This document shows positions 1 to 41,801 of a stretch of DNA of 41,801 nucleotides, piece by piece. The notes under the pieces were generated by a model, which did no database searches, was not told the origin of the DNA, and saw nothing but the letters and a program-made list of their open reading frames with translations. This DNA is from a phage. Position 1 is the stretch's first letter, and the number at the start of each line of letters is the position of its first letter. A program made the translations under genes and the position numbers. Location of the stretch: sequence record PZ179881.1, one strand, 5' to 3'.

Positions 1-1926
1 ATGACTATTCCATATAACGTTTTGATGGAAACTGAGGAGGAAATGGCAGCACGTCTGGAGGAGGAGGGTAACGCCCTCCCCTACCTCTCGGACGAAGACT
101 TTGCCAATATGAGTGAGCTGGAGCAGGAACGCCGTGTGCGCCTGGAACAGCTCGCCGCTCTACAGATTCACTACAAAGACTTCAAGCGTTTCCTCACCGA
201 CGTTATGGTGGAGTTAGGCTTCTCAGTATCAAAGATTCAGGCCGACATTGCTGACTTCATGGTCAACGGCGGCAAGTACATCATGATTGAGGCACAGCGT
301 TCGCAGGCTAAGACGACCATCGCAGCCGCGTTCTGCGTGTGGCAGCTCATTCATGACCCGAAACACCGTGTGCTGATTATCTCAGCAGGCGGCTCGCAGG
401 CAACTGATATCTCCACCCTGGTCATTCGTATCATCATGAATATGGATGTGCTGGAGTGTATGCGCCCGGATAAAGCGAAGGGCGACCGTGTATCGGTAGA
501 GAAGTTCGACCTGCACTACTCTCTGCGCAAGCTGGATAAATCGGCTTCCGTAAGCTGCTGCGGTATCACCGCTAACTTGCAGGGCCGCCGTGCCGATACC
601 CTGCTGGCGGACGATATCGAGTCCCAGAAGAACTCCCTGACTGCCCTGATGCGTGAACAGCTCCTGGCTAAAACCCTCGACTTCACCTCCATCAACCAGT
701 CCGGTCGAATCATCTACCTGGGTACTCCGCAGTCCTCTGACTCAATCTACAACACCCTGCCGGGCCGTGGCTACAACGTCCGCATCTGGCCGGGGCGATT
801 CCCTACCAAAGAACAGCTCCCGTACTACGGTGAGCACCTGGCTCCGCTGCTGGCGTCCATTATGGAGCGCTACCCGGAAGTGCAGGGCGGTGGTGGTATC
901 AACGGCGACCAGGGAATCCCTATCGAGCCTTCTTTCCTGGGTGAGGAAATCCTCCAGGCTAAGGAGAAAGACCAGGGGCCAGCTTGGTTCCAACTCCAGC
1001 ACATGCTGAACACTAAACTGATGGACGCCGAACGGTATCCATTGAAGACTGACAACTGCCTCACTATGCCGATTCGCGTAGGAGACGAACTACCACTGGA
1101 GATTAAACGTGGCTACGACTACCGCGAAGTGCAAGTCGAAGGCAAGACCTACCGATTCGCTAAGCCTCACACATATTCCGCAGAACTGGCTAAGCCTACA
1201 GGCATCTGCTTCTACATCGACCCCGCAGGTGGGGGTAAAGGTAAAGGCACTCATGGGGGTGACGAAACTGGCTGGGCGTGTACTGCCTTCCTAAACGGTA
1301 ACATCTTCGTGCTGGGCTACGGCGGCATCAAAGGCGGCTATGGCCTGAACGGTTCCGGTGAAACGGATGGCTCTATGGTCAAGCTGGCCGAGCTGGTTAA
1401 ACGCTTCAAGCCCAACGTGGTTAAGATTGAGCAGAACTTCGGCTACGGTGCATTCCGTGCTGTCTTCCTGCCAATCCTGCGCGAGGTCTACCCGGATTGC
1501 TCCGTGGAAGACGACTTCGTTACCGGGCAGAAGGAAGTCCGTATCATCGACATTCTTGAGCCTATCATTGCTCGTGGTTCCCTCATCTTCGCAGAGGACG
1601 CCCTTCTGGGCGAGCGGCAGTCACTCCAGATTCACCCGGACGTGAACCGCATCACCTACTGCATGATGCAGCAGATGAACCACATCACCCGTGACCGTGA
1701 CTCCCTGATTCACGACGACCGACTGGATGCCCTGGCTGGCGCTTGCTACCATTGGGAACAGCAGCTCATCGTTGACCAGCACGAGATTCGGAAACGGATG
1801 CAGGAGGCCGAGGAGAAGAAGTTCTGGGCTGACCCGCTACAGCACAATCGCATTAAGCAGCAGGGCCAAGTGTTCAATCGTGGCACTGGCATGAACATGC
1901 TCGCACACCGTCGCGGTCGCCGTTAG
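1..1926 (+). CDS. terL: Terminase large subunit (T7 gp19-like packaging ATPase/nuclease)
   Basis: 641-aa ORF; its ATG at 1-3 overlaps the stop of the upstream small-terminase ORF across the window boundary (TA + A); size, position and remembered similarity to T7-group large terminases. Confidence 0.85.
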   Translation: MTIPYNVLMETEEEMAARLEEEGNALPYLSDEDFANMSELEQERRVRLEQLAALQIHYKDFKRFLTDVMVELGFSVSKIQADIADFMVNGGKYIMIEAQRSQAKTTIAAAFCVWQLIHDPKHRVLIISAGGSQATDISTLVIRIIMNMDVLECMRPDKAKGDRVSVEKFDLHYSLRKLDKSASVSCCGITANLQGRRADTLLADDIESQKNSLTALMREQLLAKTLDFTSINQSGRIIYLGTPQSSDSIYNTLPGRGYNVRIWPGRFPTKEQLPYYGEHLAPLLASIMERYPEVQGGGGINGDQGIPIEPSFLGEEILQAKEKDQGPAWFQLQHMLNTKLMDAERYPLKTDNCLTMPIRVGDELPLEIKRGYDYREVQVEGKTYRFAKPHTYSAELAKPTGICFYIDPAGGGKGKGTHGGDETGWACTAFLNGNIFVLGYGGIKGGYGLNGSGETDGSMVKLAELVKRFKPNVVKIEQNFGYGAFRAVFLPILREVYPDCSVEDDFVTGQKEVRIIDILEPIIARGSLIFAEDALLGERQSLQIHPDVNRITYCMMQQMNHITRDRDSLIHDDRLDALAGACYHWEQQLIVDQHEIRKRMQEAEEKKFWADPLQHNRIKQQGQVFNRGTGMNMLAHRRGRR

Positions 1927-1972
1927 GCCGCGCACCAAAATTCCTTTTTAAAAATTCTTTGGAGAAATCACT

Positions 1973-2878
1973 ATGTTCGTACATGAAGCCCCATTCCTCG
2001 GCGCAGTATCCGGTGCAGGTCAGCTCCGTCGTGACGCAGTTCGTCTGCAATGCTATGCGGAAGTCAACACTGGCGCTCAGCCGGACGTGCTGGCGTTCTG
2101 GGAATCTCAGAAAGCCCTGGCTGATGTTGACCACGGCCTGCCGTATGATGGCACCTATGTTCCCGGCGTAATCGACCTGCGCCCGGCTTGTTACAAGGTG
2201 CTGTCCCATTACCGTATGTTCAACCCGGAAGGTATCCAGGACTACAAAGACTTCTGCGACTTCTTCATTGAAGCCAACGGAGGCGTTACTGTACCTCTGG
2301 GTTTTAGTAAGAACCTGTCAGGCTCGAACGCATCGGATGCAGAAGGCACCTATGTCCCGGCAGGTTCTACCTACACTAACAGCGTCGAAGTAACAGGCGG
2401 CAAAGCTCCATATACCTACCAGTGGTTCAAGCGTTCTGGTGGTGTAGACCAGCCTGTAGGAACCGATGCACCGGAGTACAGCATCCCTAACTACGCAGCA
2501 GGTAACAACGGTGATTACTTCGTCCGGGTTACTGATGCCAAAGGTACAGTTATTGAGTCTACCCGTGACCGTACCCGTGTTGCAGTGAGCCTGACTACCA
2601 ACCTGCCAACCACGGCTACCTGGACTGAGGGTACTGCGGCAACCCTGCGGGTTTGGGCGGCTAATGGCTTCCATCCATACGCTTACCAGTGGTTCAAAGA
2701 CGGTGTAGCGACGGGCAACACTGGTGCTTCCCTGAACAAATCTTCACCTACTGCTGCTGATGCAGGCGTGTATCATTGTCTCGTTACCAGTGCAAACACC
2801 CGTGCACCTCGGACGGTTGAGTCCGTTAAGTGCACTGTGACTGTCAATCCGGCACCGCCAGTTGAACCAGTGGAATAA
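1973..2878 (+). CDS. Ig-like domain protein (two tandem immunoglobulin-like domains); possible virion decoration/adhesion protein
   Basis: 301-aa ORF with GGAG 8 nt upstream of ATG; two repeats of the Ig I-set-like pattern (YTYQWFKRSGG...GDYFVRVTDAKG and YAYQWFKDGVATGN...DAGVYHCLVTSAN); N-terminal ~110 aa unrecognised. Confidence 0.6.
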   Translation: MFVHEAPFLGAVSGAGQLRRDAVRLQCYAEVNTGAQPDVLAFWESQKALADVDHGLPYDGTYVPGVIDLRPACYKVLSHYRMFNPEGIQDYKDFCDFFIEANGGVTVPLGFSKNLSGSNASDAEGTYVPAGSTYTNSVEVTGGKAPYTYQWFKRSGGVDQPVGTDAPEYSIPNYAAGNNGDYFVRVTDAKGTVIESTRDRTRVAVSLTTNLPTTATWTEGTAATLRVWAANGFHPYAYQWFKDGVATGNTGASLNKSSPTAADAGVYHCLVTSANTRAPRTVESVKCTVTVNPAPPVEPVE

Positions 2879-2886
2879 CAAGGAGG

Positions 2887-2904
2887 GCCGGGTGAAAGCC
2901 CGGC
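2887..2904 (+). promoter_or_regulatory. Hairpin between SD and start codon of the endolysin gene
   Basis: GCCGGG-TGAAAG-CCCGGC (6-bp GC stem) sits between AGGAGG (2881-2886) and ATG 2912; folding would bring the SD to about 7 nt from the start. Confidence 0.4.
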
Positions 2905-2911
2905 ATTTACT

Positions 2912-3484
2912 ATGAGCATCAAACAGAAGGTGGCGCTTGGTTCTATCGCCAGCGTCCTATCAATCATCGCTACTGTATACCCGAATGAGCTGCACACCTC
3001 TGACCGGGGACTACAGCACATAGCCCAATGGGAACAGTATGCTACCCGGACTTACCTGGACAGCGTTGGAGTACCGACCATTGGCCTGGGTGCTACAATC
3101 TGGCTCGACGGGAAGCGCCCTAAAGCGGGCCAGGAGGCCTCGGACTTCCAGGCAGCCCAACTGTTCATCCGTGACATTAAAGTGGCTGAGAAGTGCGTTC
3201 TGGAGCGCCTGGATGGTGCTGCGATGCCTCAGTCGGTATTCGATGCGTCAGTATCCCTGATTCACAATACCGGGTGCGCTGGTGCAACCTACAACCCTAA
3301 GCGTAAGGCTAAGACCAACCTCCGATTACAGGCTGAGGCCCATAACTGGTCACAGGTCTGCTACCGCATGGGTGACTTCATCTACGCTGGTGGCCGGGTA
3401 TCCAAAGGTCTGGTTAACCGCCGCACCGCTGACCAAAGGCTATGCCTGGAGGACTTACCGAATGTTTCCCTCAACCGCCGTTAA
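2912..3484 (+). CDS. SAR-endolysin (T4-lysozyme-type muramidase with N-terminal signal-anchor-release domain)
   Basis: 190 aa; weakly hydrophobic Gly/Ala/Ser-rich N-terminus (VALGSIASVLSIIATVY) followed by E-x8-D-x5-T catalytic spacing (WEQYATRTYLDSVGVPT), as in phiKMV/P21-type SAR lysozymes. Confidence 0.8.
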   Translation: MSIKQKVALGSIASVLSIIATVYPNELHTSDRGLQHIAQWEQYATRTYLDSVGVPTIGLGATIWLDGKRPKAGQEASDFQAAQLFIRDIKVAEKCVLERLDGAAMPQSVFDASVSLIHNTGCAGATYNPKRKAKTNLRLQAEAHNWSQVCYRMGDFIYAGGRVSKGLVNRRTADQRLCLEDLPNVSLNRR

Positions 3485-3833
3485 GAAGGTAGCAGCAGTG
3501 GCCCTGGTTGCCGCTGTGCTGGCCTCTCTGCTGTTCCTGGTACACTTCTATAAGGATAAGGCTGATACGGCCACAGAGCGGCTCCAGGGCGTTACTACGG
3601 AGCTTACTGAGACTCGTGATGCCTATGACCGATACGTTAACGAGCAGAGCCTCATCCGGGATATCCTGGCTGCTGGTGCTGCGGCTAAGCAGGCCTCAAA
3701 GGAGAAGACTGATGATGCCATTACGAAACACAAGGCTTCCGGTACTCGTGTCACTGTTAGCGATGCTGACGCTGACCTCCTGTACCAGAGAAGTCGTGAA
3801 GTACGAGAGGGTGCCGCTGGTTCTATCCAGTGA
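3462..3833 (+). CDS. i-spanin (Rz-like)
   Basis: ATG at 3462 (in frame with track ORF 3282-3833), GGAGG ~10 nt upstream; N-terminal TM segment (VAAVALVAAVLASLLFLV) then charged helical periplasmic domain; start overlaps endolysin 3' end. Confidence 0.65.
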   Translation: MFPSTAVKKVAAVALVAAVLASLLFLVHFYKDKADTATERLQGVTTELTETRDAYDRYVNEQSLIRDILAAGAAAKQASKEKTDDAITKHKASGTRVTVSDADADLLYQRSREVREGAAGSIQ

Positions 3834-3999
3834 GGTTACTGACCCGGTTAAGCCTCCGCTGTTCCAGAAGGATACCGACCTGGTTGAGTACGCCTTGCAG
3901 CTCCTGGGTGATATTGAGCAGATGAACCAAGACCGCGCTACTGTGCGGAAAGCTGTGGATACCCACAACGGTGCCTCTGTGACTCACCCTGTGAAGTAA
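3712..3999 (+). CDS. o-spanin (Rz1-like outer-membrane lipoprotein)
   Basis: Internal ATG of track ORF 3508-3999 with GGAG 8 nt upstream; signal peptide ending in lipobox-like LTSC; short Pro-rich mature region; out of frame and overlapping the i-spanin gene. Confidence 0.6.
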   Translation: MMPLRNTRLPVLVSLLAMLTLTSCTREVVKYERVPLVLSSEVTDPVKPPLFQKDTDLVEYALQLLGDIEQMNQDRATVRKAVDTHNGASVTHPVK

Positions 4000-4043
4000 C
4001 CCTGTGCTGGGCCGTCGGTGAGTGTATACCTGCGGCCCAAATA

Positions 4044-4052
4044 TGGTATAAT
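4044..4052 (+). promoter_or_regulatory. Extended -10 element TGgTATAAT (possible host promoter)
   Basis: Perfect TATAAT with upstream TG; no convincing -35; located just after the lysis cassette at the start of the non-coding terminal region. Confidence 0.25.
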
Positions 4053-4149
4053 TATGCGAGACGGTAGCGACCCGGCGCGGAACCCGTACTTCCCCCATAG
4101 GGCACCCGGCGGAACCATCGGAGTGACCATCTGGCCATCTGGACGGCTA

Positions 4150-4190
4150 AACGGGGAGCCTGCCGGATAACCGGGGAGCGAACCGGGGAG
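4150..4190 (+). repeat. Three direct copies of AACsGGGGAG
   Basis: AACGGGGAG (4150-4158), AACCGGGGAG (4169-4178), AACCGGGGAG (4181-4190); flanked by further CCGGGT / GGGTTA-rich repeats to about 4460. Confidence 0.5.
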
Positions 4191-4503
4191 AACCTCGCTT
4201 TAACCTGTGGGTTAGCCGGGTTGCCCTGTGCTTTACTCTGTGCGGTATCCTGTGCGTTAACCGGGTTGTACTCACCACGTCCCGCAGGTTTATCAGAGTC
4301 GCCACGGGTTAGACTCAAGGGTTATCGGTTGGTGAGTTTAGCAGTTACATCACCGGGTAACGAGGGTATCGGGTTAACAGTGGCTATAGTAACAGGGTTA
4401 GCCGGGAGTGTCAACCGGGTTTATTCATTGGGTTACTCATTGGTTTAAATCCGGGTAGACAGGCGGCCTATCTGTATCTTCTGCCATTACCCAGAGAGTA
4501 AAT

Positions 4504-4527
4504 CTGAATTGGCACCCCTATAGTAAC
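4504..4527 (+). promoter_or_regulatory. Phage RNAP promoter (CTGAATTGGCACCCCTATAGTAAC) in terminal/leader region
   Basis: One of four near-identical + strand copies of yTGAwTTGGCACyCCTATAG; resembles the SP6/K11 class of single-subunit RNAP promoters (xxCACTATAG core); predicted +1 at the final G (4523). Confidence 0.65.
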
Positions 4528-4565
4528 AGAACGGTCGAATGCGGCTTGTGTATCTGTTACGGCGG

Positions 4566-4770
4566 TAACCCGGAGGGAAGGGAGGGAGGAGAGAGACACG
4601 GGAGAGAGTAACCCAGAGAGGAGACTACCCGGAGAGACTACCCAGAGCATAGCCCAGAGGTTAGCACCCAGAGAGTAACCCAGAGGAGAGCAACCCGGAT
4701 AAGCTAACCCGGTTAACAGACACGGAGAGCAAGCCAGAGAGTAACCCGGCATAGCATAACCCGGAGAGCT
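4566..4770 (+). repeat. Array of about 13 short purine-rich direct repeats (CCCrGAGAG-type units, period about 12-13 bp)
   Basis: Visible tandem units such as ACCCAGAGAG, CCCGGAGAG, CCCAGAGGAGAG, often followed by TAA or CTA; starts about 40 nt downstream of the phage promoter at 4504. Confidence 0.6.
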
Positions 4771-4805
4771 ACCGCCTATAGTAAACCCGGCTAACCCTGG
4801 TTAAC

Positions 4806-4817
4806 CTGCACTCGCAA
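4806..4817 (+). repeat. Recurring hairpin motif copy 1 (CTGCACTCGCAA)
   Basis: Core GCACTCGCA, potential TGC-ACTC-GCA stem-loop; intergenic, ~30 nt upstream of the sigma70-like promoter. Confidence 0.5.
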
Positions 4818-4848
4818 AGGGTATCTGTAAATAATTTCTAAAAGAGTG

Positions 4849-4878
4849 TTGACACGGGCTAATCAGTATTGCTATAGT
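4849..4878 (+). promoter_or_regulatory. Sigma70-type host promoter candidate (early)
   Basis: TTGACA (4849-4854), 18-bp spacer, TGcTATAGT extended -10 (4870-4878); AT-rich stretch upstream (4826-4846). Confidence 0.5.
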
Positions 4879-4988
4879 TCACATCGTCGAAGGGCAACAC
4901 GGAAACGGATAGCCCAGAGATACCCGGTCAAGCGGGTTAAGTAGACAGCCTGCTCAGTCATACGAACAACAGGCACTTGACAAGATGT

Positions 4989-5029
4989 GATGTAACGTAG
5001 TACCTTAGTAACCGATGTAACGCAGTACC
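4989..5029 (+). repeat. 16-bp direct repeat pair GATGTAACGyAGTACC
   Basis: Copies at 4989-5004 and 5014-5029 differ at one position; between a TTGACA box (4977-4982) and the first early ORF; candidate protein-binding site. Confidence 0.45.
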
Positions 5030-5088
5030 GCTCTTTAACAATCCGGGTAATCTATCAAGTGATGCCGTCTAACAATGAGGGTAACACG

Positions 5089-5400
5089 ATGGAATTAAAG
5101 AAACAGTTGACACGCTATAAACGCAGTGCTAACGTAGAAAAGCTCCACCAGACGCTAAGCGCTGAGGCGATGCAGAAGGATGGGCAAGCGGCACGACGCC
5201 GCAAGAAACAGCTAAGCGAGCGGCTTTACATTCCGCAAGTTATAAGCTCTAATGACTTCTCCGATAAGGGGAACATGCGCAAGACGGCAGCTAGGAGCAA
5301 TCAGGGCAACGTCCGCGCCATCGGCAATAAGACCGATGTTAAGATTAACAGCTATTGGTCAAGTAAACGCGGCGATAACATGCCGAAAGATAAAGGTTGA
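5089..5400 (+). CDS. Hypothetical early protein (very basic, low complexity)
   Basis: ATG at 5089 with GAGGG 7 nt upstream (track ORF 5059 begins at an upstream GTG); first ORF after the terminal promoter region; coding status less certain because composition looks atypical. Confidence 0.45.
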   Translation: MELKKQLTRYKRSANVEKLHQTLSAEAMQKDGQAARRRKKQLSERLYIPQVISSNDFSDKGNMRKTAARSNQGNVRAIGNKTDVKINSYWSSKRGDNMPKDKG

Positions 5401-5453
5401 CAGCTACGGCGTCACCTGATAGATTACCCGGACAGTTAGCCAGTGACCGCAAC

Positions 5454-5465
5454 CCGCACTCGCAA
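5454..5465 (+). repeat. Recurring hairpin motif copy 2 (CCGCACTCGCAA)
   Basis: Core GCACTCGCA flanked by AACCC ... GGGTT, which can extend the stem; in the ORF-free gap. Confidence 0.5.
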
Positions 5466-5936
5466 GGGTTCAAACGGTTGAGTCACTGAGTTAACAAATC
5501 GCTTGACACTAAGCGATAACATGATGTAAAGTGATTACCGAGTTGACACGATGTTGGTGTCCTCCACGGCAGGGCGAGTAAACAGCCAGCCGATGCGCAG
5601 TCCTCCGGCGCGATGAGTCCTACGGGACGGTAGATGGGGAGGCCGAGCTAGGATTTAGGTCACATAAAATAATCCGAAGGGTGTGTGGCGAGCATTACCG
5701 TCTTATAGTCGAAAGGCTCACGGTAGGAATCGCGGCAAAGGTTCTCTTATCCAGTCAGTACAGGGATAACGTCCGATGCCACCAACGAGATAACATCCAG
5801 AGACGCTGGACGGTTGGAACTGAGTACGCTTAACGGTGGAAATGGGAAGGCTTGCGTAGTGATGTTATCTGGTTGGTTAATGTAAGCGTCATTGATGTGA
5901 TGGCGCTGACTTTAACTAACAACTGAGGATATAATC

Positions 5937-6506
5937 ATGGCAACTGCAAAAATCAACTTCGCTAAACTGACCACCACTGAGCAGATGGACGCGGCAATCG
6001 CCAACGTAGCAGAACGCTCTAACCTGCTGCAAGCTGACATTCAGCACGTCGCTGTAGCTATCCTGTGCCACGCCTTCCGTACTGGCGACTACACTCGTGC
6101 TAACACGCTGCACGATGCGCTGGGTGCTGGTGTACGCCGCAAGGGTCTGGTAGCGTGGTTCAGCAAGGGTGGCCTCAAGGTGTCTGAGAAAGAGCAGGCA
6201 TTCGTGGGCTTTGAGCAAGACCTTGATGCCCTGCGTATCAAGGCTGAGAAGGGTGACGACAAGGCTAAGGCTAAGGTCGTGGCTCACCTCGACGCGATGA
6301 AGAAACAGAACTGGTGGGACATGAAGCCGGAGAATAGCTTCGCTGGCTTTGACTTTGAGGCTGAGGTTGCCCGCCTGATTAAACGTGCGCAGAAAGCCAT
6401 TGAGAAGGATGGCGCTACGCCTTCCGATGCTAAGGGTGAGGACTACAAAATGACTGTGACGCCTGAGAAGCTGGCCCAGCTCAAGGCTCTGGTAGGTGCA
6501 GCATGA
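5937..6506 (+). CDS. Hypothetical early protein
   Basis: 189-aa ORF, GAGGA 7-8 nt upstream of ATG; no recognisable motif. Confidence 0.7.
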   Translation: MATAKINFAKLTTTEQMDAAIANVAERSNLLQADIQHVAVAILCHAFRTGDYTRANTLHDALGAGVRRKGLVAWFSKGGLKVSEKEQAFVGFEQDLDALRIKAEKGDDKAKAKVVAHLDAMKKQNWWDMKPENSFAGFDFEAEVARLIKRAQKAIEKDGATPSDAKGEDYKMTVTPEKLAQLKALVGAA

Positions 6507-6781
6507 TTAAGTCTATCAGCGTGGCGGTGCCTGAGCACCGCGCTGTACCCTGCAAGTCAAAGGTGAGCTGGTCGTCACCATTCCATAGCCGCGTGAAGTA
6601 TGAGGAGTACCTCAAGCGCTATGACTATGTGGTGGGTGTCAATGGTGTGGCGTTTATCACCCGCACCTTGAAGCATAACGGCCTCGTGATGATTGCGACG
6701 GTCAAGGTGTACTTTGAGAATGCACCTGTGGTAGAGTTCAGCTATGCGCCAAGTCATGCGCTGCTGGAATCCCTTGCGTAA
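6503..6781 (+). CDS. Hypothetical early protein
   Basis: 92-aa ORF whose ATG overlaps the upstream stop (ATGA), suggesting translational coupling. Confidence 0.6.
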   Translation: MIKSISVAVPEHRAVPCKSKVSWSSPFHSRVKYEEYLKRYDYVVGVNGVAFITRTLKHNGLVMIATVKVYFENAPVVEFSYAPSHALLESLA

Positions 6782-6901
6782 TGTGTTTGGTGTGTGGTGC
6801 TGGTTAACTCCCGGCACCACTGACCACGACAACTACCTCCTGATGTATGGGTGGAATGTCAAGGTGACTCAATGGAGAAGGTGACAGGCCGATGGCTTGC
6901 T

Positions 6902-6912
6902 TGCACTCGCAG
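6902..6912 (+). repeat. Recurring hairpin motif copy 3 (TGCACTCGCAG)
   Basis: Intergenic, ~40 nt upstream of the ORF starting at 6951. Confidence 0.5.
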
Positions 6913-6950
6913 GCCATTATCATGTTCCCTAATGATGTGAGGATGTAACG

Positions 6951-7355
6951 ATGTTTACTGTATTCCTGAGCGCGTTCCGTGGTGAGCGCACGTTTGAGCA
7001 GAACGTACTGAAATCTGCTGAGCTGGCTTCCCTGCTGATTAATCAGGGCTATACGCCGGAAGTGGTGGCGGGATTCTACCCGGAGAACGGCGGCCAGACC
7101 GTGACGTTTGAGCAGTCCTACGCCGTGCGTGTTGAGACGTATGCTGAGTGCGTCAAGTTGGCACAACTGGCGGGCGATGCGTTCCAGCAGGAATGTGTCC
7201 TGGTGGTCGATGTGCTTGACCGCATGGCTGCATCGTACCTGTACCCGGCTGGTGACTCCACGACTGAGGGTTACCTGCGTCGCCAGACTGAGCAGCCAGA
7301 GGGTGCGCGTAGTCAGTGGCGCGGTGCGTGGTGGACTATTGAGGCGACTGCGTGA
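6951..7355 (+). CDS. Hypothetical early protein
   Basis: 134-aa ORF with GAGGA upstream of ATG. Confidence 0.65.
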   Translation: MFTVFLSAFRGERTFEQNVLKSAELASLLINQGYTPEVVAGFYPENGGQTVTFEQSYAVRVETYAECVKLAQLAGDAFQQECVLVVDVLDRMAASYLYPAGDSTTEGYLRRQTEQPEGARSQWRGAWWTIEATA

Positions 7356-7912
7356 TGTGGTGGGATTGTGGATTAGCGATATACGATACGCTCCGGTTTA
7401 TAGAGGATGTGAAGAAGATGGAGAAATTACATGGGGTTATGGCTACTCGCGGTCATTGTGTGGGTAATGGCGGTCTTCGCGGTCATTCGGTTGGTCGCTA
7501 TTTCCCGTGCGTGATTTACATGAAGGGTAACCCGTCACAGCTAACGTGGTGGGTGCGCCAGCCTAATGGCGTGGATGCTGGGCCGCATAAATCCTACGAG
7601 GAGGCGGCTATGACGGCGCACAGCTACAACACCGGGCAGTGTGAGGACACTATCCGGGAAGTGTACCTGATGAAGGTGCAAGTTAACGAGGACAAGGCTA
7701 CCGGGGAAACTGACTGCGTAGCCTACTGCATGGCGGAGGAGATACCCTTCGATGTGTACGGATTGTACGGCGTGACTCCCGAAGGGTTGAGCCTGCATCT
7801 GTGTGATTATGACCGCTACCCGGCAGCACGGAATGAGTTAGCCCGTGCGCAAGGTCTGGTAGCTGGTGGCCCTGTACTGTATCGTGACCTGCTGGAGGCA
7901 CTCAATGACTAA
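7355..7912 (+). CDS. Hypothetical early protein
   Basis: ATG at 7355 overlaps the upstream TGA; an alternative start at ATG 7418 has a better SD (GAGGATG... 7403-7407). Track ORF 7352 starts at GTG. Confidence 0.55.
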   Translation: MWWDCGLAIYDTLRFIEDVKKMEKLHGVMATRGHCVGNGGLRGHSVGRYFPCVIYMKGNPSQLTWWVRQPNGVDAGPHKSYEEAAMTAHSYNTGQCEDTIREVYLMKVQVNEDKATGETDCVAYCMAEEIPFDVYGLYGVTPEGLSLHLCDYDRYPAARNELARAQGLVAGGPVLYRDLLEALND

Positions 7913-8147
7913 GACACAACGCCGTATCAATAAGCGCAACCTGATTCGTAACAGCCGCCGCTACCGTGTGGTAACCGGGGAGGGTAACGGGCATTACTTT
8001 CCGGTCGGCACCATTGTACGCCATGCTGACGCTGAGCATTACGCTGATGTAGGCGGCTCTGAGTCAGAGAATAACTTCCTTGTCGTTGAGACAGGCAAGG
8101 TACGATTCCCACTCAAGCAGTGGGTAAGCCCGCGAGATATCGCATAG
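7905..8147 (+). CDS. Hypothetical early protein
   Basis: ATG 7905 preceded by GGAGG (7895-7899); in frame with track ORF 7866-8147, whose N-terminal extension is rejected. Confidence 0.55.
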   Translation: MTKTQRRINKRNLIRNSRRYRVVTGEGNGHYFPVGTIVRHADAEHYADVGGSESENNFLVVETGKVRFPLKQWVSPRDIA

Positions 8148-8222: not shown

Positions 8223-8450
8223 ATGAACCGCGTAGTTTACTCCACCGATGCCGCTCACCCTGCGTACCGCAACCCACTGGTCGAGCAACCTGCTGAATCC
8301 ATGCGGGAGTGGGAAGAACGCCCACGCCGCACAAAGCGCGAGTGCCGCGATGCACATAATGCGCTGAACATTGAGTACCGCCGCCGTGCCGCCGCGTGTG
8401 GCATGACCTTTGAGGGCTACCTTGCCCGCTTCAACATAACCCTGAAATGA
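8223..8450 (+). CDS. Hypothetical early protein
   Basis: 75-aa ORF, GAGGA 8 nt upstream. Confidence 0.6.
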   Translation: MNRVVYSTDAAHPAYRNPLVEQPAESMREWEERPRRTKRECRDAHNALNIEYRRRAAACGMTFEGYLARFNITLK

Positions 8451-8460
8451 GGATGTTAAT

Positions 8461-8988
8461 ATGACCCGCACTATCTACCCAGGCTTGAAAGTCCGCGTCC
8501 GTGATGATGCCGCTGGCGTTAATTCGTGGAACATCGGCAAGGTGGTTACCATCGCGCAGGTGTATGGTAATTGGGCGTTGTACTACTACGACGATAACCC
8601 GACCCGCTACCGCATGACGCTGTTTAACTTCTGGAATCGCTTCGAATCGCTCGAAGTGAAAGGCCCGTTCCCTGACGACGAGCCGCAGGTATTCAACGAT
8701 GTGCGCCAGGCACCGCTGGGTATGGTGCTGCGCTATGACCTCGACGGTGAAGCGCCTTCCCGTGGTGCTAAGTATCCGTATGTCGTCCGCCTGTACTCCG
8801 GGCTGCACGGCTGGTGTCGTAATCGTGGGGCATGGGTGCCGATTCCGGCAGACCACGAGGGCGCATGGCTGTTCAACCTGAAAGACGTGTGGCCTGTACC
8901 AGCGCAGTGGACTGAGGCATTCGAGTACCCGATGCCATCCAATGCAATCCTTTATGTTCAACGTGTAACGGGAGCTGACAATGCTTAA
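8461..8988 (+). CDS. Hypothetical early protein
   Basis: 175-aa ORF, GAGGA upstream; Trp/Tyr-rich, no recognised domain. Confidence 0.65.
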   Translation: MTRTIYPGLKVRVRDDAAGVNSWNIGKVVTIAQVYGNWALYYYDDNPTRYRMTLFNFWNRFESLEVKGPFPDDEPQVFNDVRQAPLGMVLRYDLDGEAPSRGAKYPYVVRLYSGLHGWCRNRGAWVPIPADHEGAWLFNLKDVWPVPAQWTEAFEYPMPSNAILYVQRVTGADNA

Positions 8989-9364
8989 CCGACTGACTTT
9001 AATCATCCGCCCGGCGTCCAGCTATCACGCCCAGATTAAGAAGATACTGACCGACGAACGCTTCGACCACCAGTTCGGCTCGTTGCAGGTAGAGAACGCT
9101 GATACCGGACACACGGAAGACGTGGTGCTGGTGACCTGCGTGGACTTCCACGATGTAGGCGTAGTGATTGAGAAGCTGCGCACCCGTATCAATCCGAGCT
9201 ACTATCTGGTTGATGCGAGCAAGGCGGTGTTCAGCTACCACCATGTTAACCGCAAGCTGACCGCGCTGGGTTATCTGTACCAGTCCGACGTGGTGCTTCA
9301 CACGTATAACCGCCACATCAAAGTAGGCGACACTAACTATTCATTCTGGGAGAGCAAAGCATGA
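8981..9364 (+). CDS. Hypothetical early protein
   Basis: 127-aa ORF, GGGAG upstream, overlaps neighbours by a few nt. Confidence 0.6.
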   Translation: MLNRLTLIIRPASSYHAQIKKILTDERFDHQFGSLQVENADTGHTEDVVLVTCVDFHDVGVVIEKLRTRINPSYYLVDASKAVFSYHHVNRKLTALGYLYQSDVVLHTYNRHIKVGDTNYSFWESKA

Positions 9365-9657
9365 GCAAGAAAGCAGACGCATTGAACGGGGCAAAGGCAC
9401 GTATCGTAACGCTGGAGCGAGCCTACGAAGGGCTTGAGGGTAAGTACGCCCAGCTTCAAGCGCGGGCTGTGGTGGCTGAGCGCCGCTTCGAGTCAGCGCT
9501 GAGTGAGCTGGAGAACAAACACGCAGAGCTGGCTAACTGCCGTGGCCTGAATACCAGCCTGATTAAGAAGCTGGAGACGGCTCGCATCTGGGCTGTGGTC
9601 TTCGGCCTGCTGCTGGTAACCACCATCGGAACAATCGCAGGAGGTGTGTTCGCATGA
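9361..9657 (+). CDS. Hypothetical small membrane protein (coiled-coil N-terminus, C-terminal TM anchor)
   Basis: 98 aa; heptad-like charged helix then C-terminal hydrophobic segment IWAVVFGLLLVTTIGTIAGGVFA; GGGAGAG upstream; ATGA overlap with upstream gene. Confidence 0.6.
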   Translation: MSKKADALNGAKARIVTLERAYEGLEGKYAQLQARAVVAERRFESALSELENKHAELANCRGLNTSLIKKLETARIWAVVFGLLLVTTIGTIAGGVFA

Positions 9658-14199: not shown

Positions 14200-16668
14200 A
14201 TGGCTATGAAATGCCTGATTCACGACTGTGAAACAGAAACTAACCCGTGGTATGGACAGGTGGCATCGCCGTACTGCCCGGATAACTACGTGGTTGAGGA
14301 CGCCTGGGAGACGGTAACCCTGGGCGGTGAGGTGGAGATTAGCCCGCGTACCGACCGCCGCTACAACTCGCTTGAGGAGTGGAAGGGCAACTGGTCTGTG
14401 GACTTCTCCGGGATTGATATCTACGTGGCCCACAATGCTGCGTATGAAATGAGCTGGTTACTGGAGCACGACTATGATAACTTCATGGCGTTTCTCAAAC
14501 GTGGTGGTCGTGTTTATTGTACCGCTTACGCTCACTATCTACTCAGCAACATGCAGGACACTTACCCCGCGCTTAACGACGTTGCACCAATCTACGGCGG
14601 TACGCCAAAGGTGGATGCAGTCAAGGCACTATGGGAAGCTGGCGTTAAAACGTCGGATATTGACCCGGCGCTACTTCGGGAGTATCTGTTCGGGCCTAAC
14701 GGCGATATCGCCAACACCACCAAAGTTTTCCTGGGAACGTGGTCGGAGCTTGTTAGACGTAACATGTTGAAGATGGCGCTGGTGCGCATGGATGGCCTGC
14801 TGTTCTCTGCCATCTGTATGCACCACGGCTTGAAGGTTGACATGGAGGTAGCGGAGCGTGACCGCAGCCGTAACGAGCGGTTGCTGGAAGGCCTGCACTC
14901 GCAGGTGATTCAGTATCTGCCAGCGGATATGCCCGCCGAAGCCCGTGCGCAGTTCACCGGGACACGCTTCCAGTTGTCGGCGTTCATCTTCGGTGGCGCT
15001 ATGAAGTACACGGCGCGAGTACCGCGTGAGGATGCCGACGGCAATCCCATCTACGTGAAGAAGGAAGGGCCGTACTTCAAGAGCATCAAAGGAGCGCTGC
15101 CAGAGAGCGCCTGCATGTTCGACGAGGAGGCAGGTGGCCTTTGGTATTCCCCGGAGCTGAAAGAGCACCAGGCGCGTTACACGGCAGGTAAGAACAAAGG
15201 CCTGCCGAAGTTCGATAAGTATGTGACCGACGAGGTTGATACGAAGAACGGCGACCTGCTGTATCACTTCCCCGGCCTGCTGTCTGAGGAGGTGCAGGAG
15301 AAGCTGAGCCTGGCGATTGAGGGTGAGTGGTCTGGTAGCCAGAAGCTGCAAGACGGCAGCCCGGTAATCAGCACCAGTGGTGACGTGTTGGATGTGCTGG
15401 CGGCGCACGACGTGCCAGTAGCTAAGTTGTTGAAAGATATCGGGAAGATTGATAAAGACCTCGGTGCATTCTACATCAAGCGCACGTTCAACAAAGATGG
15501 CAGCTTGAAGAAAGAAGGCGGCATGTTGCAGTACGTGCAGCCGGACGGCTTCATTCACCACACGCTGAACCACACGAGCACCGTGACGGCGCGACTCAGC
15601 TCGAACAAGCCGAACCTCCAGCAGTTACCACGAGCGGAGGAAGCGCGGGACGAGAACGAGTTCAAGTCCACGGTTAAGGAAATGTTCGTGAGTCGCTTCG
15701 GTGACGACGGCGGCATCCTCCAGGAGGACTACAGCGCACTGGAGACGGTTGGTTTGCAGGTGTTGACCCGCGACGTTAACCTCAAGGCTGCGCTGCTCAA
15801 AGGCCTGGACATGCACTCTATGCGCCTCGCGGCGATGGAGAACCAGACCTATGAGTACGTGGTGGCGCGTACCAAAGACGACACGCACCCTGAACACGCT
15901 GAGTGGGACGTGAAGCGTACAGGCGTTAAGCCAGTTGCATTCCAGTATCAGTATGGTGCGACGGCTTACGGCATGGCGATGAGCACTGGTAAATCCCAGG
16001 ACTTCTGCCAGGCGTTCATTGACGCGGAGAAGAAGGCGTTCCCCGGCGTTGAGGACTGGTACGACAACACGGTGTACCCGACGGTGGAAGCGACGGCAGC
16101 GCAGAACAAGCCTATCCGTGTGCAGCTCGACGACGGGCGTTACGTTATGTTCGGCTGGGGTACGTTCACTACCCACGACGGCACGACGTATCAGTTCCGC
16201 CAGCAGAGCAAGCAGCGTTGGAATCCGGTGACTAAGAAGCGTGAGGAAGTCAAGGAGTTCACGGTGCCGCAGATGCGTAACTACCCGATTCAGGGCGCAT
16301 CCGGTTTCTTCGTGCAGCTCGCTTGCGGTATGCTGATTCGTCACTTCATCGCCAACGACTTCTACGGTGGCAAGTGCCTGCCGATTAACACGGTTCACGA
16401 TGCGTGTTACTTCGACACTCACAAAGACGTAGTGTACCAGGCAGCGTATGAGGTGGAGGCCATCATGGAATCCATCCCGGAAATGCTGAATGCACTGTGG
16501 CCTGCGTATCAGTGTGAGGTGCCGTTCCCGGTGGCAGGTGGCTTCGGTAAGAACATGGCCGAGGAGCACCACGTTTACGACAAGGATAGCAAAGACCTGT
16601 TCAAACAGCAGAAAGCGAACTTCAAGAAAGAGTTCCTTGCTAAGAAGGGTATCGCGGTTCAATTCTGA
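14200..16668 (+). CDS. DNA polymerase (family A, with 3'-5' exonuclease domain)
   Basis: 822 aa; exo-like HDCETETNPWYG near N-terminus; pol I-type motifs (SSNKPNLQQLPR, NYPIQGASG, VHDACYFD). Confidence 0.9.
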   Translation: MAMKCLIHDCETETNPWYGQVASPYCPDNYVVEDAWETVTLGGEVEISPRTDRRYNSLEEWKGNWSVDFSGIDIYVAHNAAYEMSWLLEHDYDNFMAFLKRGGRVYCTAYAHYLLSNMQDTYPALNDVAPIYGGTPKVDAVKALWEAGVKTSDIDPALLREYLFGPNGDIANTTKVFLGTWSELVRRNMLKMALVRMDGLLFSAICMHHGLKVDMEVAERDRSRNERLLEGLHSQVIQYLPADMPAEARAQFTGTRFQLSAFIFGGAMKYTARVPREDADGNPIYVKKEGPYFKSIKGALPESACMFDEEAGGLWYSPELKEHQARYTAGKNKGLPKFDKYVTDEVDTKNGDLLYHFPGLLSEEVQEKLSLAIEGEWSGSQKLQDGSPVISTSGDVLDVLAAHDVPVAKLLKDIGKIDKDLGAFYIKRTFNKDGSLKKEGGMLQYVQPDGFIHHTLNHTSTVTARLSSNKPNLQQLPRAEEARDENEFKSTVKEMFVSRFGDDGGILQEDYSALETVGLQVLTRDVNLKAALLKGLDMHSMRLAAMENQTYEYVVARTKDDTHPEHAEWDVKRTGVKPVAFQYQYGATAYGMAMSTGKSQDFCQAFIDAEKKAFPGVEDWYDNTVYPTVEATAAQNKPIRVQLDDGRYVMFGWGTFTTHDGTTYQFRQQSKQRWNPVTKKREEVKEFTVPQMRNYPIQGASGFFVQLACGMLIRHFIANDFYGGKCLPINTVHDACYFDTHKDVVYQAAYEVEAIMESIPEMLNALWPAYQCEVPFPVAGGFGKNMAEEHHVYDKDSKDLFKQQKANFKKEFLAKKGIAVQF
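14892..14905 (+). repeat. Recurring hairpin motif copy 6 (CCTGCACTCGCAGG)
   Basis: Perfect 5-bp stem CCTGC/GCAGG with ACTC loop, inside the DNA polymerase gene. Confidence 0.45.
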
Positions 16669-38636: not shown

Positions 38637-38663
38637 CCGAACGGGGTGTACAATTCGTGTACG

Positions 38664-38687
38664 TTGAATTGGCACCCCTATAGTAAC
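38664..38687 (+). promoter_or_regulatory. Phage RNAP promoter upstream of tail fibre gene
   Basis: TTGAATTGGCACCCCTATAGTAAC followed by TAAACGAGGG; ~25 nt before the tail fibre ATG. Confidence 0.7.
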
Positions 38688-38707
38688 TAAACGAGGGAAT
38701 AGGCTTT

Positions 38708-41294: not shown

Positions 41295-41483
41295 ATGTGG
41301 CTAGTGGACACCGTAGAGAAGGCGGCTCCCGGTGTCCCGCCCGTCGTAGTGACGGGCCTCACCTTCGCTGGAGTCAGTCTACAGGATTGGGTATACCTAC
41401 TCACCATTGTGTACCTAATCGTGATGATTGGGAAAGGAATTAAGCAACTGTTCTGGGGAGATAAAGATGGCAGAACTAACTGA
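41295..41483 (+). CDS. Holin-like small membrane protein (possible pinholin)
   Basis: 62 aa; two hydrophobic segments (PPVVVTGLTFAGVSL, WVYLLTIVYLIVMIG) and charged C-terminus; AGGAG upstream; sits at the T7 gp17.5 position between tail fibre and terS. Confidence 0.5.
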   Translation: MWLVDTVEKAAPGVPPVVVTGLTFAGVSLQDWVYLLTIVYLIVMIGKGIKQLFWGDKDGRTN

Positions 41484-41801
41484 CGACGAGAAACTCGAAG
41501 TATTCAAGCAGATGCTCGCCGAAATGGACAACGAGAAGCTGGCTAAGCTGCTGCTCAATAAGTCCCTGCAAAAGCTGGCTCTGCTGCTGGAAGAAGACAT
41601 GGCTACCGCTGCCGACTTCAACGTTATCCGGGCAATCCTGAAAGACAACAACATCGGTATCGTGCCGACCCGTGAGAACGCTATGGGTAAACTCCAGGAG
41701 AAGCTCAAAGAGCGCTCCCAGGAAGCGGACAAAGGCAACAACATTATCCCTGTGGACGAACTCACGCAGGTTGATATTGGCGACTTTATTATGAGGCACT
41801 A
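41467..41801 (+). CDS. terS: Terminase small subunit (3' end completed by base 1 of the window)
   Basis: ORF from ATG 41467 (GGGGAG upstream) runs to the last base without a stop; final TA plus window base 1 (A) gives TAA overlapping the terL ATG; helical, charged 111-aa product; called by position. Confidence 0.55.
   Translation, partial: MAELTDDEKLEVFKQMLAEMDNEKLAKLLLNKSLQKLALLLEEDMATAADFNVIRAILKDNNIGIVPTRENAMGKLQEKLKERSQEADKGNNIIPVDELTQVDIGDFIMRH

Follow-up and report, generated by a model that had tools for sequence, protein, structure and literature searches.

In T7, lysis genes are interleaved with packaging genes in a right-end operon of the order phi17 - 17 - 17.5 (holin) - 18 - 18.5/18.7 (spanins) - 19 - phiOR. 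One phage promoter stands before the tail-fibre gene and another one after terL. The gene for the T7 endolysin, the cytoplasmic amidase gp3.5, is far upstream of this operon, and the spanin genes lie between terS and terL, with Rz1 fully embedded. The cassette of phiKMV is summarised as the pinholin gp44, the SAR endolysin gp45, and Rz/Rz1 after terL (Briers et al. 2011, cited in PMC4640515); it follows terL at the right genome end, with the pinholin gene directly upstream of the endolysin gene and the spanin genes behind them. In the SP6-like E. coli phage KBNP1315, the holin, a SAR-type endolysin, Rz and Rz1 are encoded at separated positions; the endolysin is SecA-dependent and is enhanced by the holin, and its release by signal peptidase was inferred by the authors (PMC4640515). 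Structures are available for P1 Lyz (PDB 1XJT/1XJU) and R21 (3HDE), both of which have the GH24 fold and an N-terminal SAR-like domain. A literature search found no dedicated study of spanins or SAR endolysins in Cronosvirus or in Melnykvirinae.

The window, by which we mean the whole analysed stretch of 41,801 nucleotides, represents the genome of a Cronosvirus (Autographiviridae, Melnykvirinae) in circularly permuted form. Over the region its nucleotide identity is 98% to Cronobacter phage GY3 (LC779549) and 92.5% to vB_CskP_GAP227 (NC_020078). The junction between the two ends of the window is real, because the terS stop codon TAA is split over it (bases 41800-41801 and base 1) and the genes are contiguous in the relatives where the window has its ends. 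All four lysis genes, encoding a holin, an endolysin and the spanins Rz and Rz1, are confirmed with independent profile support. They very probably constitute the standard three-step lysis system of Cronosvirus, i.e. of GAP227-like podoviruses of the T7 supergroup. Gene order is identical in GY3 and GAP227, and the holin and the endolysin are already annotated in both records. In contrast, Rz is 'hypothetical' there, and Rz1 is cut to an ORF of 60-62 aa without the signal peptide and the lipobox.

Three other genes on the plus strand complete the context of the lysis genes. The small terminase subunit gene terS (41467-41801) was read from the sequence, and its position matches the annotated terS in GAP227 and GY3. 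The large terminase subunit gene terL (1-1926), which is annotated in all relatives, is located between the holin and endolysin genes. It is followed by a gene for an Ig-like, Hoc-like head decoration protein (1973-2878), assigned by matches to Pfam Ig_3 and Ig_2 and to PHROG 2973 (E = 7e-100).

The holin gene (41295-41483, plus strand) encodes a 62-aa protein of the T7 gp17.5 family. The protein scores 29.2 bits against Pfam PF10746 (T7 holin; gathering score 25.4), matches the PHROG 920 holin family with E = 3e-19, has 40% identity to T7 gp17.5 in BLASTP (E = 3e-8), and shows 100% identity to the holins annotated in GAP227 and GY3. These matches bear out the assignment of this ORF as a holin in the original prediction. 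By hydropathy, weakly hydrophobic uncharged residues 10-29 are followed by a strong transmembrane segment at about residues 32-46 and a basic C-terminal tail with four basic and two acidic residues. The gene lies between the tail-fibre gene and terS, which is the position of T7 gene 17.5, and overlaps the terS start by 17 nt. The holin of KBNP1315, a phage of the same family Autographiviridae but of a different subfamily, does not match it at E < 1e-3.

It had been supposed that the SAR endolysin would normally be paired with a pinholin. The supposition is not supported here, as the holin is homologous to T7 gp17.5 and unrelated to the phiKMV pinholin gp44, and large-hole holins work too: it does not align with gp44, and its family matches in Pfam and PHROG are to the T7 holin family only. 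A preprint on phage N4 states that SAR endolysins are released by either type of hole. The first hydrophobic segment of the holin (TMD1) is SAR-like, with a mean hydropathy of 1.43 by hand calculation, and pinholin-type behaviour of a T7-family holin may be compatible with such a segment. As for a different holin elsewhere in the genome, a possibility that the original prediction had named, every ORF of 30 aa or more on either strand was scanned for hydrophobic segments and the list was then narrowed to plausible genes, and no better candidate than 41295-41483 is apparent among them. Only one further coding-strand protein, of 98 aa, is predicted to be membrane-bound; it is encoded outside the cassette at 9361-9657 (plus strand).

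The endolysin gene (2912-3484, plus strand) encodes a predicted SAR-type GH24 enzyme of 190 aa. It matches the Pfam Phage_lysozyme family PF00959 with E = 1.8e-22 (80.4 bits, cut-off 22.3) and the PHROG 7 endolysin family with E = 2e-44. A regular-expression search identified the catalytic triad E41-QYATRTYL-D50-SVGVP-T56, which fits the pattern E-x8-D/C-x5-T. The residues E41 (codon at 3032-3034) and T56 (codon at 3077-3079) are invariant in 24 homologues. At the N-terminus, the n-region MSIKQK, with a charge of +2 from its two lysines, is followed by uncharged residues 7-25, whose hydrophobic core VALGSIASVLSIIATVY comprises residues 7-23 (codons at 2930-2980) and has a Kyte-Doolittle value of 2.02 over 17 residues. 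Gly, Ala, Ser and Thr account for 42% of residues 7-25. Their mean hydropathy is 1.54 versus 2.6-2.9 for the transmembrane segment of Rz, and the insertion-energy sums are +5.2 and about -1 to -3, respectively; all these values are crude sums, valid for comparison only.

The best match of the endolysin sequence among solved structures is P1 Lyz (1XJT, E = 4e-16). The alignment starts at residue 9 and therefore includes the SAR domain. The AlphaFold model of the endolysin has a pLDDT of 89.5, with residues 11-30 above 90, and its top Foldseek matches are all GH24 endolysins. It fits best to active P1 Lyz (TM 0.81/0.86, RMSD 2.5 A over 181 columns), with helix 12-22 packed into the fold in the same way, whereas the fit to the secreted inactive form (1XJU) is poor (TM 0.51). 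The sequence and the model thus support the predicted SAR type, and the SAR domain and E-x8-D-x5-T endolysin of the original prediction are upheld by the GH24 profile, the motif, the weakly hydrophobic N-terminus and the match to P1 Lyz.

Compared with the characterised enzymes, the endolysin combines features of P1 Lyz and R21, with both of which it shares the fold, the triad spacing and the N-terminal domain. Its overall identity is higher with P1 Lyz (30%) than with R21 (about 19%), and it has the four conserved non-regulatory cysteines of P1 Lyz, whereas the Asp at the second triad position is as in R21. The regulatory cysteines of P1 (the SAR Cys, Cys44 and the catalytic Cys51) are missing. 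Also missing are the three regulatory cysteines of GAP227-type relatives (SAR Cys10, Cys43 and Cys46 in GAP227); these have been lost together, and in their absence the control of the enzyme should be cysteine-independent, as in R21. In 25 SAR-bearing homologues, a Cys in the N-terminal domain and a Cys at position +2 after the catalytic Glu are either both present (17 proteins) or both absent (eight). This perfect co-occurrence argues that the N-terminal domain is kept in the mature enzyme. The phiKMV endolysin KMV45 is homologous to the studied one (33% identity, E = 1e-11). The T7 amidase is cytoplasmic, whereas the enzyme described here is a GH24 lysozyme predicted to be secreted.

The i-spanin gene Rz (3462-3833, plus strand) encodes a protein of 123 aa that matches the PHROG 214 family of Rz-like spanins (E = 5.5e-17). 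A strong transmembrane segment at residues 10-28 (hydropathy 2.86, negative insertion-energy sum) precedes a charged periplasmic domain predicted to be helical. The first 23 nt of the gene are shared with the endolysin gene, and GGAGGA is found 10 nt upstream of its ATG. The mechanically called GTG start at 3282 was rejected in favour of ATG 3462, which has a Shine-Dalgarno sequence and gives a proper N-terminal transmembrane segment.

The o-spanin gene Rz1 (3712-3999, plus strand) encodes 95 aa and starts at an ATG preceded by AAGGAG. The mechanical ORF begins at TTG 3508; it was rejected as a start because ATG 3712 has a Shine-Dalgarno sequence and a proper signal peptide. The signal peptide contains the lipobox LTSC with the cysteine at position 24 (nt 3772-3783), and the +2 position is occupied by Thr25 and not by Asp. 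Matches were found to PHROG 456 (E = 2e-7) and to Pfam LysC (E = 2.3e-5; 24.6 bits, below the gathering score of 27). Rz1 is read in the +1 frame of Rz ((3712-3462) mod 3 = 1), overlaps it by 122 nt and ends 166 nt past its stop codon. The original prediction that Rz1 overlaps and extends beyond Rz, without being embedded in it, therefore stands. This geometry supports a putative two-component spanin of the overlapped rather than the embedded type, an architecture reportedly described by Summer and co-workers in 2007 (P2 LysB/LysC-like).

An overlapping-frame ORF for an Rz1 lipoprotein with a lipobox is kept in GAP227, Kc318, EspYZU05, Dev-CD-23823, EspYZU13, PP2, phiR8-01 and Ahp1, so that its conservation covers three genera and Ahp1. 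In pairwise BLASTP, neither Rz nor Rz1 gave a significant match to the spanins of T7 or phiKMV. The ORF at 4221-4448 (75 aa, mildly hydrophobic), directly after Rz1, is not considered to be a gene because stops or frameshifts break the reading frame in GAP227, EspYZU05 and Kc318.

The order holin-terS-terL-X-endolysin-Rz-Rz1 is found in GAP227, GY3, EspYZU13, Kc318, EspYZU05, Dev-CD-23823, PP2, phiR8-01 and Ahp1. The four inspected genera of Melnykvirinae are represented by five further Cronosvirus genomes, PP2, phiR8-01 and Ahp1. The split of the cassette, with the holin before terS and the endolysin and spanins after terL, is thus as originally described, but it is no peculiarity of this phage, since the layout is common to all four genera. 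It is ordinary, being the norm for Melnykvirinae, and every component belongs to a known family. The distance between the holin stop codon and the endolysin ATG, counted across the window junction, is 3,229 nt (3.2 kb) and not 2.6 kb as initially given.

The position of the holin is inherited from the T7 layout. The window shares with T7 a homologous holin, its slot between the tail-fibre gene and terS, and the interleaving of lysis with packaging genes; in about 50 of the 56 phage records matched by the holin, its gene adjoins terS. The endolysin and the spanins occupy the post-terL slot that is used by phiKMV, likewise at the right genome end and with the spanins following, whereas the T7 spanins precede terL. 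Thus the holin has kept the T7 gene 17.5 slot, and the split originates from the use of the phiKMV slot for the other lysis genes. In contrast to phiKMV, the Ig-like gene and a hairpin stand directly upstream of the endolysin gene in place of the pinholin gene.

To describe transcription, we constructed a promoter weight matrix from the phage's own repeat TTGGCACCCCTATAGYAAC; the model rests on five sites and is blind to host-type or unrecognised promoters. The scan yielded only five sites, at 16661, 23907, 27358, 38660 and 4500. The one at 38660-38693 (plus strand), a copy of TGAATTGGCACCCCTATAGYAACTAAACG, is a putative phage-RNA-polymerase promoter upstream of the tailspike gene and corresponds to T7 phi17. 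The copy at 4500-4533 (plus strand) follows the lysis genes close to the right end of the genome, in a position like that of phiOR on the T7 map, and marks the end of the late operon. The weight matrix detects no phage promoter between 38660 and the Rz1 end, the next copy being that at 4500, and no promoter was found in a sigma-70 scan of the plus strand of the terS-terL-Ig region. The sole terminator-like element on the plus strand from 38660 to the Rz1 end is a short hairpin separated from the endolysin ATG by only 7 nt, which leaves no room for a promoter after it. Most simply, the holin, terS, terL, the Ig-like gene, the endolysin and the spanins therefore probably form one late operon similar to the phi17 unit of T7. 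The lysis genes had been thought to be spread over two transcription units, which is at odds with the single promoter ahead of the block and the lack of any within it.

The G+C-rich hairpin (2887-2904, plus strand) has a 7-bp stem and a GAAA loop, and the corresponding stem-loop is annotated by ARNold in GAP227. It is immediately preceded by the Shine-Dalgarno sequence AAGGAGG (2880-2886, plus strand), located 25 nt upstream of the endolysin ATG and represented by AAGGAG, ATGGAG or CGGAGG in relatives. The 35-nt segment from the Shine-Dalgarno sequence to the ATG has a minimum free energy of about -15 kcal/mol (z = -3.1). Across Cronosvirus and PP2 the stem is invariant and the loop is variable, with pair 7 being U.G, A-U or U-A. 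No Rfam family matches the window at the gathering threshold, and a search of viral contigs for the hairpin retrieved, beyond Cronosvirus and Wanjuvirus relatives, only unrelated terminators. The Shine-Dalgarno sequence, the hairpin, the 7-nt spacer and the ATG may form a structural ribosome-binding site of the endolysin gene, in which the Shine-Dalgarno sequence would be in working range only once the 18-nt hairpin is folded. Structural ribosome-binding sites of such type have been described for genes 38 and 25 of T4.

Other interpretations of the locus were considered. The endolysin could carry an ordinary cleavable Sec signal peptide and act as a soluble secreted enzyme, with lysis timed by something other than SAR release, an arrangement that has been proposed for Lys44 of fOg44. 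The n-region MSIKQK and the hydrophobic core of 12-17 residues do resemble a signal peptide, and the (-3,-1) rule permits signal-peptidase I sites inside the hydrophobic stretch, e.g. I18-I19-A20|T21. A SignalP cleavage call is also obtained for the functionally SAR-like endolysin of KBNP1315 (PMC4640515), so such predictors are unable to separate the two classes. However, the N-terminal domain aligns with the uncleaved SAR domain of P1 Lyz, the modelled helix 12-22 belongs to the fold at pLDDT > 90 in a superposition covering 181 of the 190 residues, and the hydrophobic stretch is not followed by a polar A-x-A c-region. The paired cysteines of the homologues would make sense only if the domain were retained. 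Cleavage is therefore regarded as quite improbable.

Even less probable, indeed hardly to be expected, is that lysis is triggered by the product of ORF 9361-9657 and that the T7-type holin is an accessory, although gene 17.5 is non-essential in T7, which in its absence still lyses with a delay. This only other coding-strand membrane protein has a coiled coil and a transmembrane segment at its extreme C-terminus and so resembles in overall design the N4 pinholin gp63, for which the N4 preprint describes a coiled coil and an anchoring transmembrane segment at the C-terminus; in the 98-aa protein, the transmembrane segment and the N-terminus are highly conserved. Nevertheless, the protein is not similar to gp63 (E = 11), has no PHROG or Pfam family, and is encoded in the early region, at a distance of 5.4 kb from the lysis cassette. 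Its family is restricted to the present phage group: tblastn finds it in six phage records (five of Cronobacter and one of Kosakonia), with five protein clusters in all, whereas homologues of the holin occur in 56 phage records that cover eight host genera. The third interpretation, which is unlikely but less so than the other two, treats the hairpin 2887-2904 as an efficient terminator that makes the endolysin and spanins a separate, weakly expressed unit. It accords with the terminator-like hit, the ARNold annotation in GAP227, and the stability and conservation of the hairpin. However, the stem is followed by a run of only three U residues (AUUUACU), a poor context for termination of either the intrinsic or the T7-type class I kind, and the 7 nt before the ATG are too short for a promoter. 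With none downstream until 4500, the lysis genes would be expressed by read-through only. The strong Shine-Dalgarno sequence directly adjoins the stem at its 5' base, and the two are conserved together, which suggests a function in translation and not in termination.

Within the single late operon preferred here, the hairpin could still act as a partial terminator, and the dosage of the endolysin and spanins would then differ from that of the holin despite the shared promoter. By attenuating read-through, it might set the endolysin and spanin output below the holin output. We speculate that the structural ribosome-binding site, the possible attenuation and the SAR-like holin segment belong together; this suggestion is tentative and rather doubtful. 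If true, a holin of the T7 type would have been adjusted in this subfamily to serve as the depolarising trigger of a secreted endolysin.

In the three-step system of Cronosvirus, the endolysin would be exported by the host Sec machinery, and by homology its weakly hydrophobic SAR domain would keep the inactive enzyme in the inner membrane. Following the precedent of P1 Lyz and R21, depolarisation of the membrane would cause the SAR domain to exit the bilayer and become folded into the body of the lysozyme, switching the endolysin on without its passage through the holin. After degradation of the wall, the complex of Rz in the inner membrane and the Rz1 lipoprotein in the outer membrane would fuse both membranes. 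The searchable literature contains no experimental test of any of these steps in the present phage or in any Cronosvirus.

These observations carry little weight for biology at large. Their practical value is in the annotation of spanins and in the use of the endolysin: its SAR type is relevant to cloning and engineering it as an antibacterial, because Sec export will probably render the complete protein toxic and the active fold probably includes the N-terminal domain. Spanins were stated to be absent in the papers on Ahp1 (PMC5014404) and PP2 (PMC5506502); however, overlapped Rz/Rz1 pairs are plainly recognisable in both genomes.

The 41.8-kb window is a complete genome opened at the start codon of terL; the TAA stop codon of terS consists of bases 41800-41801 and base 1. 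Over bases 1-8000 (megablast) it is 98.1% identical to Cronobacter phage GY3 and about 90-95% identical to Kosakonia virus Kc318, EspYZU05, GAP227 and Dev-CD-23823, all of which are Cronosvirus (Autographiviridae, Melnykvirinae). Judged by the reference genomes, whose order is tailspike, holin, terS, terL, Hoc-like gene, endolysin, two small ORFs, right end, the actual linear genome carries holin and endolysin as neighbours on its right arm. The genes between them are terS, terL and an Ig-like gene, as originally predicted, and the distance is 3,229 nt instead of the proposed 2.6 kb. The separation itself is nothing peculiar: the full order holin-terS-terL-X-endolysin-Rz-Rz1 is present in nine genomes representing four genera of Melnykvirinae, and the split is ancestral and ordinary. 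Holin homologues occur in 56 records of phages of Aeromonas, Yersinia, Cronobacter, Pectobacterium, Vibrio, Serratia, Klebsiella and Kosakonia, and the holin adjoins terS in about 50 of them. The arrangement in the window is the holin slot of T7 plus the post-terL endolysin-spanin slot of phiKMV. Experimental work on the SP6-like phage KBNP1315 (PMC4640515) has dealt with lysis genes that are separated and include a Sec-dependent endolysin.

The functional labels first given to the lysis genes are correct, with profile matches for the endolysin, Rz, Rz1 and the holin; the part missing from existing records is the spanin pair. Both spanin genes were over-long in the mechanical ORF list, and their starts were re-set from the sequence. 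Rz (3462-3833, + strand) has its ATG at 3462, with GGAGGA 10 nt before; residues 10-28 of the 123-aa product form a strongly hydrophobic helix near the N-terminus, and PHROG 214 ('Rz-like spanin') is matched at E = 5.5e-17. Rz1 (3712-3999, + strand) has its ATG at 3712, with AAGGAG 7 nt before, and encodes 95 aa starting with MMPLRNTRLPVLVSLLAMLTLTSC; it matches PHROG 456, and a match to Pfam LysC is under threshold. A check for a signal peptidase II site revealed the lipobox LTSC with Cys24, and the threonine at +2 is a predicted outer-membrane sorting signal. Rz1 begins within Rz in the +1 frame, shares 122 nt with it and ends 166 nt past it, in agreement with the 'overlapped' architecture assigned to the pair. 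The endolysin and Rz share 23 nt (3462-3484), suggestive of translational coupling. This overlap exists because eight residues, PNVSLNRR, extend the C-terminus of the window endolysin beyond that of the 182-aa version in GAP227.

Spanins were stated to be absent in the papers on Ahp1 (PMC5014404) and PP2 (PMC5506502). An ORF with a lipobox was found in PP2, phiR8-01 and Ahp1. The Rz1-type lipoprotein ORFs of PP2 (7843-8106) and phiR8-01 (8360-8638) overlap the annotated ORF after the endolysin. In Ahp1 the pair (about 4131-4466 and about 4350-4626) consists of an Rz-type ORF with an N-terminal TMD, which is missing from the annotation, and the lipoprotein ORF that overlaps it. EspYZU13 carries an Rz1-type lipoprotein ORF at about 4900-5192. 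The RefSeq/GenBank records of relatives list Rz as hypothetical and Rz1 truncated; the Rz1-type ORFs of the four phages just named either lack annotation in the records, are truncated there, or form part of a longer, fused 'hypothetical protein'. What the analysis contributes is this improved annotation, together with two minor points of regulation: the probable hairpin bridge at the endolysin start and the concerted loss of three cysteines. The ORF at 4221-4448, just 3' of Rz1, is broken in relatives and was rejected as a gene. The non-coding right end after Rz1 (4120-4770) is crowded with short degenerate repeats with periods of 12-13 and 26 nt, e.g. CCCAGAGAGTAACC, resembling the arrays beside the terminal repeats of T7-like genomes; the GAP227 reference genome ends at about window position 4611.

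The lysis genes had been expected to be spread over two transcription units, which the promoter map does not support. A repeated 30-nt motif, TGAATTGGCACCCCTATAGYAACTAAACG, is present at 4500, 23907, 27358 and 38660; a further, weaker copy, at 16661, diverges after TATA. All five copies, with the core TTGGCACCCCTATAGYAAC, are intergenic and on the + strand; the sites follow the RNA polymerase gene, precede the capsid gene or the tailspike gene, or lie near the right end. By analogy with T7, they are likely to serve the phage RNA polymerase as promoters; the one at 4500, in the non-coding right end, is placed like phiOR of T7. The copy at 38660 is followed by the tailspike, holin, terS, terL, the Ig-like gene, a hairpin, the endolysin, Rz/Rz1 and the next copy at 4500, and the motif scan found no promoter on the + strand between 38660 and 4500. 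The phi17 ... phiOR unit of T7, where the holin and spanins are interleaved with packaging genes, mirrors this order. A weight matrix built from the five copies yielded no further + strand site above background, and scans for sigma-70 promoters and terminators on the + strand from 38700 to 2886 added nothing.

The 62-aa product of the ORF at 41295-41483 (+ strand) is a holin, as predicted: it matches PF10746, the T7 holin family (29.2 bits at a gathering score of 25.4), and PHROG 920 (E = 3e-19), and shares 40% identity with T7 gp17.5 (E = 3e-8). The holin and terS share 17 nt (41467-41483), which suggests translational coupling. The segment A10-L29 is uncharged and Pro/Gly-rich, with a mean hydropathy of about 1.43, not above that of the endolysin SAR domain; it precedes a strong TMD at about residues 32-46 and a net-positive tail. 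By the positive-inside rule the C-terminus would be placed in the cytoplasm, and an N-in/C-in two-pass topology and an N-out single pass are both possible. No feature identifies this protein as a pinholin, and it does not align with the phiKMV pinholin gp44. In T7, its homologue gp17.5 serves a cytoplasmic amidase; gp17.5 is cited as making sudden membrane lesions, and its deletion does no more than delay lysis (PMC8365609). The original prediction took pinholins to be the normal partners of SAR endolysins. Such pairing is a tendency rather than a requirement, because either type of hole suits a SAR endolysin: N4 gp61 gave complementation in both backgrounds (bioRxiv 10.1101/2025.11.12.688109).

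A different holin elsewhere in the genome was sought by a search for hydrophobic segments in every ORF of either strand, followed by construction of a non-overlapping gene map. Besides the four lysis proteins, the single real gene with a membrane segment is the ORF at 9361-9657, whose 98-aa product has a coiled coil and a TMD at the extreme C-terminus (WAVVFGLLLVTTIGTIAGGVFA). The N4 pinholin gp63 is described as having the same gross architecture, which speaks for a holin function; however, the two proteins lack similarity (E = 11), the ORF belongs to no Pfam or PHROG family, it lies among the early genes, and it is conserved only in a narrow phage group (six phage records, five protein clusters). 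It is kept as an improbable alternative to the gp17.5 homologue.

The endolysin (2912-3484, + strand; 190 aa) matches Pfam Phage_lysozyme (E = 1.8e-22) and PHROG 7 (E = 2e-44), and a regular-expression search recovered the predicted catalytic spacing as E41-x8-D50-x5-T56. Four indirect lines of evidence, namely N-terminal hydropathy, sequence match, predicted structure and cysteine co-variation, make it very probable that the enzyme is of the SAR type, as proposed. Residues 7-25 are uncharged, preceded by two lysines, and have a mean hydropathy of 1.54 and 42% Gly/Ala/Ser/Thr; a crude sum of insertion energies is +5.2, compared with -1 to -3 for the Rz TMD of the same cassette, so that the stretch looks marginal rather than stable as a membrane helix. 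The top match among solved structures is P1 Lyz (1XJT, E = 4e-16), aligned from residue 9, within the SAR domain. An AlphaFold model built with 24 homologues (pLDDT 89.5; above 90 for helix 12-22) has as its top PDB match active P1 Lyz (181 columns, TM 0.81/0.86, RMSD 2.5 A), where the SAR domain, once released, forms part of the enzyme fold, and fits the secreted inactive form 1XJU poorly (TM 0.51). KMV45, the SAR endolysin of phiKMV, is 33% identical.

In P1 Lyz, by thiol isomerisation, and in Lyz103, by disulfide caging, the SAR domain acts on the active site. An N-terminal-domain cysteine is present in 17 of the 25 SAR-bearing homologues, all 17 of which also have a cysteine at position +2 from the catalytic Glu (mostly E-x-C-x-x-C, a few with the P1 pattern). 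This coupling argues that the N-terminal domain stays attached and communicates with the active site as in P1 Lyz and Lyz103. The other eight, the window protein included (G10, Y43, R46), lack all of these cysteines; in the alignment of homologues, the endolysins without this set include those of GY3, Kc318, EspYZU13, Dev-CD-23823 and PP2. The window endolysin would fall in a cysteine-independent, R21-like mode. GAP227 and EspYZU05, from the same genus, retain the set. The presence of both types in one genus, with the 5' part of the gene diverging most between them, suggests that thiol-controlled and cysteine-independent activation have been exchanged for one another.

The stop codon of the Ig-like gene (2876-2878) is followed at 2880-2914 by AAGGAGG-GCCGGGU-GAAA-GCCCGGC-AUUUACU-AUG, whose last three bases are the endolysin ATG (2912). 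No Shine-Dalgarno sequence lies nearer to this ATG than the strong one, AAGGAGG, 25 nt away; an 18-nt G+C hairpin with a GAAA loop fills the gap down to 7 nt, so the spacing is 7 nt if the hairpin is folded and 25 nt if it is unfolded. The Shine-Dalgarno sequence, six G-C stem pairs and the 7-nt spacer to the ATG are kept in the window, six other Cronosvirus genomes and the Pectobacterium phage PP2 from another genus (Wanjuvirus). The loop is variable (UGAAAG, GUAACA, GGCAACA-type, GUAG), and pair 7 is U.G, A-U or U-A. The 35-nt segment from the Shine-Dalgarno sequence to the ATG folds with about -15 kcal/mol (z about -3). A plain Shine-Dalgarno sequence without a hairpin is found in phiR8-01, and the 9-nt gap in Ahp1 is too short for one. 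The hairpin is called a terminator in the GAP227 record (ARNold), and just three U residues stand 3' of the stem. It is more likely to function as a structure-bridged ribosome-binding site, perhaps with partial attenuation, than as a terminator.
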